DNA of 42,128 bases from a virus, in the UHGV virus genome UHGV-0155081; one strand, 5' to 3'. Of the stretch, positions 40,722 to 42,078 are shown in pieces. A program made the position numbers and the translations under genes. The notes beneath the pieces were generated by a model that saw only the letters and a program-made list of their open reading frames with translations, did no database searches and had not been told where the DNA came from. Position 1 is the stretch's first letter. Every line of letters begins with the position of its first letter.

Positions 40722-41837
40722 TTAAATTTCAGCTATAAAACCTTCATAATTATTTTGTAAAAAAGGTTTGATGAACTTACGCTGAGGGGTATAAATCATA
40801 TCCTGATTTACTAAATCTGAGCGGATATTGAAAGTGGTTGAGAGCATGTTAAAGAACATCCTTTTCTTTTGCTCGTTGCCACCTGCTTTACCACATACCT
40901 TTTCCATCATTTCAAGGCATATCACCAGCCACGCATTGTAAAGCTTGGCCTTTTCTTCGTTAGTTTTTCCGCAAAAGTAAATCGTGTTAATAACCGAGTT
41001 AAGAATGAAGTGTCTATCTTCAAGAGGAAATTTTTGCCTTGATAAATGACCATTACCATGGAATGTTAAATGATAATAATCTTTGTCAGCAAGAATAGAT
41101 ATATTGTTTGCTACAGATAGAGATTGAACCATAAATATTTTATCTTCAGCTACGGTGATAGCTGGGTTGAAGAGAATGTTATGCTCTTTAAGCATATTTC
41201 TTCGGAAGAATTTGAAAATAGTTAACGACCGCAAGAGGTGATGCTTGGTTATATCTGCCTTATCTACAATTTTCACCTTGTATGGACGGATAGGCACCTC
41301 GCGATTACCATCTGATGCAATTTTGAAGTAAACAATATCACTATTATTTTTATCAGCAATATGAACCCCTCTCTCAAGAAGAGTTTCGTCAATATAGTCA
41401 TCGGAATCCATGAAGAAAATATAACGCCCTTTTGCTGCTTTTATCCCCTCATTTCGCGGGGTTGAAGCGTTACCTGAACCAATTTCTCGGCGAATAATTC
41501 TGTAGTTAATATCCGGTGCTATATTATATTCTATAGCAGCAATGCTTTTGTCACTTGAACAATCATCGACAAAAATAACCTCAAAGCGATCCTTATTAAT
41601 TGTTTGGTTATTAAGTGAGTTAATGCATTTAAGAATAAGTTTTTCACGATTATGAACAGGGATAACAACTGACACATCTAATGGGCAAAAATGGTTAATC
41701 TCATTAACTACAGTCGTTATTTTAGTAAAAGCCGCCAACAAAGCTGTTGTTAAATCAGTAGAAGATAAAAGGCTTTCTTTTTTAGTATTAGCTTTTATGT
41801 TAAAATAGAACCAATTATTACGAGGTACAAAATCCAC
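40722..41837 (-). CDS. Family-2 glycosyltransferase body (likely surface-polysaccharide modification), frame-separated from its leader
   Basis: 371-aa ORF; GT-A motifs (VVIPVHNRE...FVDDCSSD...FFMDSDDY); begins only at a GTG 9 nt after the repeat tract; about 30% GC. Confidence 0.8.
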   Translation of the reverse strand: MDFVPRNNWFYFNIKANTKKESLLSSTDLTTALLAAFTKITTVVNEINHFCPLDVSVVIPVHNREKLILKCINSLNNQTINKDRFEVIFVDDCSSDKSIAAIEYNIAPDINYRIIRREIGSGNASTPRNEGIKAAKGRYIFFMDSDDYIDETLLERGVHIADKNNSDIVYFKIASDGNREVPIRPYKVKIVDKADITKHHLLRSLTIFKFFRRNMLKEHNILFNPAITVAEDKIFMVQSLSVANNISILADKDYYHLTFHGNGHLSRQKFPLEDRHFILNSVINTIYFCGKTNEEKAKLYNAWLVICLEMMEKVCGKAGGNEQKKRMFFNMLSTTFNIRSDLVNQDMIYTPQRKFIKPFLQNNYEGFIAEI

Positions 41838-42078
41838 GCTTACAAATGGCTGGCTGGCTGGCTGGCTGGCTGGCTGGCTGGCTGGCTGGCTGGCTGGCTG
41901 GCTGGCTGGCTGGCTGGCTGGCTGTGAAATCTAATGCAAATTTTACCCCTTTATATTCGAAGTCAATAACGAAGCAGTTCTCATTGTATAACCATGTTTT
42001 TTTTATGTGGTCACGCAGTGTTGTTTTCTCAAAGAACTCAACTATATTTTCAGAAATAGCAGTAATATCAGTTTTCAT
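41818..42078 (-). CDS. Leader ORF: 52 codons + repeat-encoded (ASQP)n + 9 out-of-frame codons
   Basis: ATG at 42078 with RBS AGAGG; reads through the repeat and stops at 41818..41820, 19 nt into the GT2 frame. Confidence 0.5.
   Translation of the reverse strand: MKTDITAISENIVEFFEKTTLRDHIKKTWLYNENCFVIDFEYKGVKFALDFTASQPASQPASQPASQPASQPASQPAICKRGFCTS
41847..41922. repeat. Perfect tetranucleotide tract (TGGC)19 on + strand, in the 5' region of the glycosyltransferase locus
   Basis: Counted directly: 19 uninterrupted units, 76 nt; encodes (ASQP)n in the leader ORF. Confidence 0.97.

Follow-up and report, generated by a model that had tools for sequence, protein, structure and literature searches.

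A phase-variable glycosyltransferase gene appears to be carried by the viral genome UHGV-0155081, a stretch of 42 128 nucleotides (nt) that was analysed at its full length and is referred to here as the window. The gene would be a single one, read on the minus strand from an ATG at position 42078 to a stop codon ending at 40722, with a tract of AGCC repeats within its 5' coding region, and would encode a soluble cytoplasmic glycosyltransferase of the TarS/TarP/RmlT family preceded by an N-terminal α/β domain of ∼110 residues. The reading favoured here, at a probability of roughly 0.8 and based on sequence comparison and structure modelling, is that of a repeat-switched TarS/TarP-type enzyme, OFF at the 19 units present in the window, which would decorate a surface glycan and alter a receptor or antigen. 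Tetranucleotide contingency loci are typical of Haemophilus, Neisseria and Campylobacter and are unusual in Escherichia coli.

Reading frames across the tetranucleotide tract

The tract consists of 19 perfect AGCC units on the minus strand (41923..41848; TGGC on the plus strand, 41847..41922), as was found by direct reading and as listed in a first-pass annotation made from the letters of the window. In Tandem Repeats Finder, positions 41847..41924 scored 156 as a period-4 array of 19.5 copies with 100% matches, and no other perfect period-4 array was found by this program within the 42 kb window. The order on the minus strand is the ATG at 42078, 155 nt of coding sequence, (AGCC)19 and then ATTTGTAAGCGTGGATTTTGTA followed by the remaining open reading frame (ORF). 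A Shine-Dalgarno-like AGAGG at 42086..42090 is separated from the ATG by a 7 nt spacer, in agreement with the good ribosome-binding site already noted for this 52-codon ORF. The arrangement is that of a contingency locus: a perfect tandem repeat with a unit that is not a multiple of three, inside the 5' coding region, 52 codons after the ATG.

The ORF list contained an 86 amino acid (aa) ORF from the ATG (42078..41818) and a 371 aa ORF from a GTG (41837..40722), the latter in the +1 frame relative to the former. The 86 aa out-of-frame product ends at a minus-strand TAA (41818..41820), which lies 17 nt downstream of the GTG and, counting the stop, ten codons past the tract, so the early stop predicted for the leader frame was recovered. 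In the frame of the GTG, a TAG at 41931..41933 closes the glycosyltransferase frame just upstream of the tract when the gene is OFF, and the GTG itself (41835..41837) is the first start possible in that frame; both were located where the first-pass annotation had placed them. When the tract was replaced in silico by 10–29 units and the ORF length recomputed each time, a single ORF of 442–462 aa was obtained only if the unit number (n) was divisible by three (12, 15, 18, 21 and so on). A remainder of one gave a stop 27 nt past the tract, and a remainder of two a stop 5 nt past it. The simulation agrees with the earlier frame arithmetic, in which loss of one unit (18) or gain of two (21) fuses the halves that are separated at 19. 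In the ON frame the tract is translated as a loop, (SQPA)n, and the length of the fused protein is 426 + 4n/3 aa. As 19 is not divisible by three, the consensus genotype of the window is OFF.

A plus-strand ORF running through the tract (MAGWLAGWL..., 41846..42124) was rejected as an artefact generated by the repeat. The equivalent (WLAG)n ORF is annotated as a 'hypothetical protein' in E. coli C and in strain GMF054, and such calls by the Prokaryotic Genome Annotation Pipeline (PGAP) correspond to window positions 41846..42124(+) and to 4347..4547, 4347..4829 and 2018..2260 in the related loci L001, L002 and L016 respectively. The same pipeline names the OFF-phase N-terminal fragment 'hypothetical' or 'PT domain-containing protein' and starts the glycosyltransferase at the internal GTG, giving a 371 aa coding sequence. 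Folded as single-stranded DNA, the GGCT strand (plus strand of the window) gave −19.6 kcal/mol (z −5.0) and the AGCC strand −3.6 kcal/mol (z +2.3), an asymmetry that could bias expansion versus contraction depending on the direction of replication.

Variation of tract length in related loci

To compare tract lengths, relatives were collected by megablast against 5,426 complete E. coli genomes, of which 30 contained the locus; this count bears only indirectly on the rarity of such tracts in E. coli noted at first pass. None of 50,697 phage records matched the locus by megablast, and the exact leader-tract junction was not matched when one genome per species was scanned for 100,044 species. The tract occupied the same position in 27 complete E. 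coli genomes, four viral contigs and one contig from Logan. Countable tracts were available from 31 loci (30 relatives and the window), including three which are interrupted or truncated by the end of a contig (HET6, DETEC-P881 and L033).

Unit number ranged from 5 to 70 across the 31 loci, within conserved flanks. E. coli C (CP029371) has 47 units, GMF054 has 70 and the window 19, and the flanks of these three are 100% identical. Four coding alleles are nucleotide-identical across strains once the tract is normalized and nonetheless differ in unit count: 5, 19, 47 and 70 in one; 5, 7, 10, 18, 21, 34, 35 and 45 in another; 11, 20, 23, 34, 50, 60 and 66 in a third; and 11, 13 and 19 in the fourth. 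Variation was also found between laboratory descendants. In E. coli B, REL606 has seven units, AS19 has ten and ATCC 11303 has 21 (ON), and one 'B' stock with 35 units has drug-selected daughters with 34, 34, 35, 35, 35 and 45 units, the last being ON. The search of related prophages for other unit counts, proposed at first pass, therefore yielded variation both between strains and within laboratory lineages.

Phases 0, 1 and 2 were occupied by six, nine and 12 of the 27 E. coli loci respectively, corresponding to six ON and 21 OFF. Each of the six phase-0 genomes has a single ORF of 449–540 aa, annotated by PGAP as one glycosyltransferase. A change in tract length alone restores a full-length ORF of 429–500 aa in all of the loci that have both a tract and a complete gene (30/30), with no secondary stop or frameshift. 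Tract length varies on laboratory and natural timescales, ON and OFF alleles both exist, and the OFF alleles are intact. Length variation, occupancy of all three phases, one long ORF in the ON phase and intact OFF alleles are the sequence-level predictions of a slipped-strand contingency switch, and the switch proposed at first pass is upheld on each of them. We infer that slipped-strand mispairing causes the changes in unit number and would turn the protein ON or OFF.

The copy in REL606 is ECB_01992, a P2-type copy of the cassette with seven units, and changes at this copy have been recorded by others. A 4 nt indel in ECB_01992 was present at 19–21% in two ancestral REL1206 control cultures sequenced at >2000× coverage, and at 32–34% in eight of 26 evolved populations (PMC7750951). 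The gene was described as likely hypermutable owing to its seven four-nucleotide repeats (PMC7750951, citing Tenaillon 2016), the hypermutable repeat was likewise reported in PMC12147273, and the gene is listed as one of unknown function (PMC10195153). In evolution experiments the indel never fixes and has been treated as non-adaptive (PMC7750951). These papers treat ECB_01992 as a nuisance locus, whereas here the cassette is read as a split glycosyltransferase gene with a switch. In the literature that was searched, no paper connects the repeat with a glycosyltransferase gene split in two, with phase switching, with TarS/TarP or with kps, although absence from that literature is not proof. 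A bioRxiv paper on phage contingency loci was set aside, as it concerns loci of homopolymer type in T2/T4, which differ from the AGCC cassette.

An origin of the tract, or of its length, in faulty assembly is extremely improbable. Long simple repeats are error-prone in long reads, short-read assemblies break at the tract, and two tracts are interrupted. Set against this are the matching position of the tract in complete genomes, viral contigs and a Logan contig from many laboratories and platforms, the 4 nt indels seen at the REL606 copy in independent deep-sequencing papers (PMC7750951, PMC12147273), and the length of the window tract, which at 76 nt fits within an ordinary read span. In 24 draft assemblies from short reads, the window-type allele is cut off 2–3 nt from the tract; as the tract breaks such assemblies, the locus is expected to be under-reported. 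The interruptions are of 13 + 20 units in HET6 (L023) and of 33 + 6 + 6 + 28 units in DETEC-P881 (L024), the latter with odd junctions such as GGAAGC; these are either real imperfect tracts or consensus errors of long reads.

Two aspects of the sample count against a repeat switch. Long-read assemblies may miscount long repeats, as the two loci with interrupted tracts illustrate, and the ON fraction of 6/27 falls under the one-third expected at random phase, in a sample whose members are non-independent.

A further relative, on a Logan contig (L041, SRR32678523, 741..768), has the promoter, leader and tract of the other cassettes joined to a third type of glycosyltransferase body with 63% aa identity. 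Its junction after the tract is different, and it is ON when n leaves a remainder of one, as with its seven units. The phase rule is therefore dependent on the allele.

Several observations concern loci in which the cassette is altered or absent. Two pig isolates, CUVM3 (L003, NZ_CP116970, 4359..5598) and CPww7, have a glycosyltransferase gene ∼90% identical in nucleotide sequence to that of the window, with neither leader nor tract; an IS3-family element lies directly upstream of the ORF, and the gene is either decapitated or locked off. Both isolates carry the ribitol-type kps region 2 discussed below. This region is also kept in the BL21 lineage (about 20 genomes), which gave no match to the glycosyltransferase cassette. 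In REL606, ATCC 11303, B and AS19 the cassette is located in a P2-like prophage, which in REL606 also has a tail-tube/gpD deletion. Outside E. coli, AGCC tracts of at least ten units are widespread, with several per genome in Gilliamella sp. wkB171, metagenome-assembled genomes of Synergistaceae, Helicobacter sp. 13S00401-1 and Oscillospiraceae, and others in Kingella kingae, Mixta sp. and Ca. Pantoea persica (L042–L121). Those tracts could belong to phasomes and are uninformative about the E. coli cassette.

The N-terminal domain

The 52-codon segment upstream of the tract had been taken at first pass for a leader. It is instead the first half of a conserved N-terminal α/β domain of ∼110 aa belonging to the enzyme, with the tract inside the protein, in a loop. 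A fused query lacking the tract matched many proteins of ∼430–455 aa, with 93–100% of the construct covered. One of these (P0002) is 82% identical and repeat-free, with the loop 'FALDFSYNQTIDKQNLNVDFVLR' at the site of the tract; another (P0006) has three units, and a third (P0004) has seven units together with the third type of body. In an alignment of 15 homologues, leader residues W29, V37, F47 and A48 were invariant. The tract is sited where a variable loop joins the conserved strands FALDF and VDFVxR; in the repeat-free homologues this loop is short and variable. Searched against Pfam and NCBIfam, the leader ORF matched no family, the only hit being a sub-threshold one to PscD.

AlphaFold models were consistent with this assignment. 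P0002 was modelled with a predicted local distance difference test score (pLDDT) of 90 and a predicted template modelling score of 0.87, and the N-terminal domain alone also gave a pLDDT of 90. The modelled domain comprises five strands, a pair of helices and a further, long helix, and the tract site falls in the β3–β4 hairpin loop. Placed on the window (minus strand) by alignment and models, the true 5' end of the gene, the ATG and 51 2/3 codons encoding helices α1–α2 and strands β1–β3, occupies 41924..42078; the (AGCC)19 tract in the hairpin loop, which is supported by the array search, the simulation and the relatives, occupies 41848..41923; and the second half of the domain (β4, β5 and the long helix), with the linker to the catalytic domain, occupies 41676..41847. 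In homologues from Campylobacter and Psychrobacter, a domain of the N-terminal type is placed C-terminally, in permuted order.

Between allele classes the leader differs by ten nucleotides but only two amino acids over 52 codons, a ratio of non-synonymous to synonymous substitution rates (dN/dS) of 0.048, and the dN/dS of the body is ∼0.1. Judged from these ratios, purifying selection acts on both halves of the gene. The dN/dS of 0.05, together with retention of the domain in all homologues of ∼430 aa, the permuted ones included, indicates that the N-terminal domain is needed in vivo.

This bears on an unlikely alternative in which the GTG at 41837 drives synthesis of a functional 371 aa enzyme at any tract length, and the tract determines only whether the N-terminal domain is attached, giving a three-level or qualitative switch. 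The 371 aa ORF contains everything that aligns to TarS/TarP, that is, the whole catalytic and helical unit resembling TarS(1–349), and three observations argue here for leakage and against a strict ON/OFF switch. Whichever the OFF phase and the allele class, the upstream ORF ends 5 nt ahead of the GTG or 17–20 nt beyond it, an arrangement compatible with termination–reinitiation; oligomer-interface mutants of RmlT keep catalysis (PMC11697029); and TarS 1–349 was crystallized as a catalytic unit without its oligomerization domain (5tzk). From the TarS fragment and the RmlT mutants it follows that a truncated enzyme initiated at the GTG could keep some activity and that OFF could be leaky. Against the alternative, no Shine-Dalgarno-like sequence precedes the GTG, because the sequence upstream is the tract; the GTG is the codon of a conserved valine in the VDFV strand; and a product that starts within the β-sheet would probably misfold. 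The constraint on the N-terminal half, described above, argues in the same direction.

Assignment to the TarS/TarP family

The catalytic body had been annotated at first pass as a family 2 glycosyltransferase (GT2). That assignment holds, and it can be narrowed to the TarS/TarP family of polymer glycosyltransferases. Pfam PF00535 (GT2) matched with an E value of 1.1e-31 (110.5 bits against a cut-off of 23.3), marking the GT-A catalytic core at 41178..41675 (minus strand), and the DxD motif of GT2 enzymes is present as an invariant DSDD (metal/donor motif, 41397..41408). The best Foldseek matches were TarS/TarP of Staphylococcus aureus (E ∼1e-25, target template modelling score 0.84, 26–27% identity), followed by RmlT of Listeria. 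When a profile of the family was compared with Protein Data Bank sequences, TarS was matched at 5.5e-64 (profile 113–427 to TarS 2–313) and TarP at 3e-57, in an alignment that spans both the catalytic and the helical acceptor-side subdomains. The latter, with the stop codon, is encoded at 40722..41177 (minus strand), as located by its match to the TarS/TarP helical subdomain. DSDD aligns with the DSDD of TarS, and an invariant E-D pair (41142..41147, minus strand; hidden Markov model alignment to TarS/TarP) aligns with TarS E177-D178 and TarP D181; D178, D181 and RmlT D198 were taken as the equivalent catalytic aspartates.

The C-terminal oligomerization (trimerization/dimerization) region of TarS/TarP/RmlT was looked for in the E. 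coli protein and was not found, and the structure model shows no membrane segment. By its catalytic and helical subdomains, the predicted enzyme is a TarS/TarP homologue minus the C-terminal oligomerization region. In PHROGs it corresponds to phrog_22088, of 'unknown function', the profile of which begins at the GTG and was therefore built from truncated gene models. No family among the PADLOC anti-phage defence models was matched at E ≤ 0.001.

Cassette structure and prophage context

Promoter-like hexamers (TTCACA-17 nt-TATAAT) lie ∼237 nt upstream of the ATG, beyond the end of the window, and were read in the related locus L001 (4955..4927). Hexamers and distance are conserved in the P22-type, P2-type and third-type cassettes, within flanks that have diverged; the final ∼45 nt before the ATG are also conserved between cassette types, and the P2-type cassette has a terminator-like hairpin just upstream. 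At the other end, a GC-rich hairpin (TGCCCAGC-loop-GCTGGGCA) at 40696..40716 (L001 3197..3217, offset +37499) separates the glycosyltransferase gene from the convergent tailspike gene and is probably a bidirectional terminator. The G+C content is 34.5% in the glycosyltransferase gene and 31% in the leader, compared with 46% in the window. By its sequence the gene is a self-contained moron with its own promoter of σ70 type and a predicted terminator shared with the tailspike gene.

The window prophage is P22-like and located at argW, and the glycosyltransferase gene is the single gene between the tailspike gene and intS. A second allele class is found in P2-like prophages, including that of E. 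coli B, between tail-fibre and tail-sheath genes; its leader is 93% identical to that of the window in nucleotide sequence and its body ∼61%. At the amino acid level, identity between the allele classes is 96% in the leader, 59% in the rest of the N-terminal domain, 70% in the GT-A core and 38% in the C-terminal subdomain. This fall along the gene fits a conserved switch module on bodies with different acceptor specificity.

In every prophage examined, whether P22-like, P2-like or lambda-like, the glycosyltransferase gene is convergent to the gene for a receptor-binding protein. This protein has head-binding and S74 chaperone domains in the P22-like prophage of the window, is a tail-collar fibre with S74 in the P2-like ones, and has S74 in the lambda-like ones (Leclercia and a metagenome contig). 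The cassette occupies the lysogenic-conversion slot beside the receptor-binding protein in all three prophage types. The window tailspike gene (38030..40675, plus strand; Pfam, Protein Data Bank sequence matches and PHROGs) encodes, according to Pfam, a P22 head-binding domain and, at the C terminus, an S74 'endosialidase chaperone' domain; the central receptor-binding part had no match. Compared with the P2-type tail fibre (L005 810..3668), its centre is 25% identical over 211 aa (E 2e-6) and its S74 domain 31% identical over 182 aa. The receptor-binding module and the glycosyltransferase may have co-diverged as a cassette, and the tailspike is the probable functional partner of the enzyme.

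Elsewhere in the window, short tandem repeats were found within an ORF at 12367..13197(+): a 24 nt unit ×2 (12731..12777), a 14–16 nt unit ×2.6 (12798..12836) and an 8 nt unit ×2 (12837..12852). The repeats at 12731..12852 could be replication-origin iterons inside a P22-like prophage replication gene.

The candidate acceptor

The surface polysaccharide recognized by the phage's own tailspike is probably the target of the glycosyltransferase. As to which polymer this would be, homologues outside phages point to capsule. Two of them, P0042 from Campylobacter coli and P0044 from a Logan metagenome contig, lie in kps-type capsule loci, both of which encode a fusion of IspD with a short-chain dehydrogenase/reductase (SDR) that resembles CDP-ribitol synthase; the C. 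coli locus also has a PF04464 gene of TagF/TarL type. The gene set recurs in REL606, where kps region 2 comprises a TagF-like gene, IspD/TarI, IS1, SDR and two hypothetical genes, and in E. coli C, where the position and orientation of IS1 are different. The gene interrupted by IS1 in both strains is the bifunctional one resembling CDP-ribitol synthase (IspD/TarI + SDR; REL606, L040, NC_012967 3023258..3025408; E. coli C, L162, CP029371 3683609..3685759). The insertions look like independent inactivations of one capsule gene.

Ribitol-type kps region 2 was found in 51 of the 5,426 genomes and in 18 of the 30 carriers of the glycosyltransferase. Among non-B genomes, the association had an odds ratio of 358 (2 × 2 table [[8,10],[12,5363]], p 3e-16), a figure that is uncorrected for phylogeny. 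The carriers positive for region 2 span two glycosyltransferase types that are 61% identical and reside in different phages. From these comparisons a ribitol-phosphate K antigen is the best single candidate for the acceptor, at somewhat less than even odds.

Four findings stand against a universal link to the capsule. Region 2 of ribitol type was absent, at the sensitivity of megablast, from 12 of the 30 carriers. The glycosyltransferase alleles of these negative carriers are at least 98.6% identical to those of positive hosts, so some other acceptor or receptor must be possible besides the capsule. No carrier was present among the 43 listed of the 134 genomes with a 77%-identical CDP-ribitol synthase. 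Lastly, residues 1–414 of the window tailspike match phrog_8280, a family annotated as 'tail spike with colanic acid degradation activity', and this match suggests a different polymer.

It is quite possible, at odds well short of even, that the switch operates as described but that its acceptor is lipopolysaccharide (LPS; the core, or the O-unit on undecaprenyl diphosphate), colanic acid or enterobacterial common antigen rather than a kps capsule. The gene sits in the slot, beside int at argW, where P22 and CPS-53 carry gtr genes, and PHROGs gave weak GtrB-like matches to the GT-A core as well as the placing of the tailspike in the colanic acid family. The carriers negative for region 2 share both glycosyltransferase and fibre alleles with positive hosts, and the cassette is still intact in E. 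coli B and C, which are rough and unencapsulated. Such an acceptor is opposed by the homology, which reaches the acceptor-side helical subdomain of enzymes that glycosylate poly-ribitol-phosphate, and by the chromosomal homologues in kps loci with CDP-ribitol synthase genes, one of them also with a TagF-like gene. It is further opposed by the rare region 2 being very strongly enriched in carriers of both glycosyltransferase types, and by the lack of a gtrA or gtrC partner and of a membrane segment in the model.

The broken pathway in E. coli B and C is relevant to a different explanation, that the tract is a hypermutable and selectively irrelevant microsatellite in a decaying prophage moron, within a gene that has no current function. 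As a general account this is very unlikely, although within E. coli B and C it probably holds. It would be consistent with the excess of OFF alleles (21/27), with the treatment of the evolution-experiment indel as a non-adaptive change that never fixes, with the IS1 interruption of the candidate substrate pathway in both strains, with the replacement of leader and tract by IS3 in the two pig strains and with the absence of the gene from the BL21 lineage. Decay is contradicted by the rescue of every tract-bearing complete gene by tract length alone, with no other lesion, and by the low dN/dS of leader and body between allele classes. Furthermore, three diverged catalytic bodies, and prophages with three types of tail, have all retained the promoter–leader–tract module; the perfection of the tract is what would be expected under continual selection or renewal of length changes; and the repeat-switch explanation itself predicts neutrality in the laboratory strains.

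Proposed mechanism and significance

Under the favoured reading of a repeat-switched glycosyltransferase, slipped-strand mispairing would shift n in steps of 4 nt, and values divisible by three would join the two halves of the gene. In the ON state the enzyme would add a sugar side branch to a polymeric surface glycan in the cytoplasm, before export. The candidate acceptor would be a teichoic-acid-like (ribitol-phosphate) group-2 K antigen specified by the rare kps region 2, which E. coli B, E. coli C and many other carriers possess. Decoration would be expected to alter the receptor or antigen met by the phage's own type of tailspike, by other phages and by the host, and a population could in this way hedge between decorated and undecorated surfaces. 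In E. coli B and C, where IS1 interrupts the candidate substrate pathway, switching would be phenotypically silent, which would account for the failure of the indel to fix in evolution experiments.

A wider version of this proposal is tentative and rather doubtful. It holds that a portable module, comprising the promoter, the 5' untranslated region, half of the N-terminal domain and (AGCC)n, sits on at least three diverged TarP-like bodies and moves with S74-type receptor-binding protein genes among prophages of podovirus, myovirus and siphovirus type, switching glycosylation of a ribitol-phosphate group-2 capsule. If this were true, the cassette would represent the first counterpart of staphylococcal TarP to be carried by phages of a Gram-negative host, perhaps with three expression states (full-length, reinitiated truncated and none), and the hypermutable locus of E. 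coli B would be a switch whose substrate pathway has been killed by IS1.

The putative switch is found in prophages of clinical isolates as well as in those of E. coli B and C, the two laboratory strains most used as phage hosts, and annotation pipelines and PHROGs systematically split or truncate its gene. The assignment extends the TarS/TarP family to Gram-negative prophages and offers a function and a mechanism for ECB_01992, which papers on evolution experiments have repeatedly flagged as hypermutable and of unknown function. Naming a specific candidate acceptor, a rare K antigen of ribitol-phosphate type, bears on phage host range, superinfection exclusion, capsule typing and vaccine or serology work.

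Comparison with known systems

The predicted enzyme is related to TarS, TarP and RmlT by the sequence and fold of its catalytic and helical subdomains, in which DSDD and the catalytic aspartate are conserved, and like TarP it is encoded by a prophage. It differs from them in its Gram-negative host and in having an unrelated N-terminal α/β-sandwich domain instead of the C-terminal oligomerization region. The E. coli gene also has a repeat switch, whereas to our knowledge neither tarP nor tarS is phase variable. TarS, TarP and RmlT glycosylate poly-ribitol-phosphate in the cytoplasm before export by an ABC transporter, and have C-terminal oligomerization regions (PMC11697029). Prophage-encoded TarP is described as altering recognition by phages and by the immune system (PMC9650247, PMC11697029).

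The gtrABC systems resemble the cassette in their slot between tailspike and int/att, and both are presumed to serve the lysogenic conversion of the receptor used by the phage. Phase variation is also a property of the gtr operons of Salmonella. The cassette differs in encoding a single soluble enzyme, compared with a three-gene membrane system, and in the use of repeat slippage, compared with Dam/OxyR epigenetics in gtr. Of a GtrA flippase, a membrane-anchored GtrB bactoprenol glucosyltransferase and GtrC, the only trace in the cassette was the weak GtrB-like match, which covers the GT-A core only.

The Haemophilus influenzae genes lic1A, lic2A, lgtC and lex2A have perfect tetranucleotide tracts in their 5' coding regions, are turned ON and OFF in translation by slippage and act on surface glycans. 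The modA tracts of Neisseria and Haemophilus consist of the same AGCC unit as the E. coli cassette. The differences from the Haemophilus and Neisseria loci are the E. coli host, the carriage by phage, the tract of up to 70 units and the absence of homology to those genes. General background on repeat contingency loci is given in PMC11868660.

The analogy with neuO of prophage CUS-3, drawn at first pass, is apt. In both cases a P22-like prophage at argW carries a modifier gene adjoining a tailspike with an S74 chaperone domain, and the copy number of a repeat sets the reading frame. In neuO the repeat is a 5' tandem array, the copy number of which (2–93) sets the frame, with neuO being ON only if in frame, and which is translated into a variable peptide; NeuO acts in the cytoplasm on a group-2 capsule polymer, and gives protection from phage specific to the capsule (PMC3046976, PMC9659370). 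The cassette differs in encoding a GT-A glycosyltransferase, whereas NeuO is a left-handed β-helix acetyltransferase; in a unit of 4 nt (AGCC) as opposed to 7 nt; and in a tract 52 codons into the gene, in a domain loop, as opposed to 2 nt after the start codon. It is also found in P2-like and lambda-like prophages and on three diverged bodies, and its target would be other than polysialic acid. Neither the left-handed β-helix nor the heptanucleotide poly-Ψ variable number tandem repeat after the start codon, by which NeuO-type genes are recognized, was found. Taken on its sequence, the cassette would best be described as a repeat-controlled, prophage-borne modifier of a surface polysaccharide, akin to CUS-3/neuO and to the switches of Haemophilus type and belonging to the gene family of neither.

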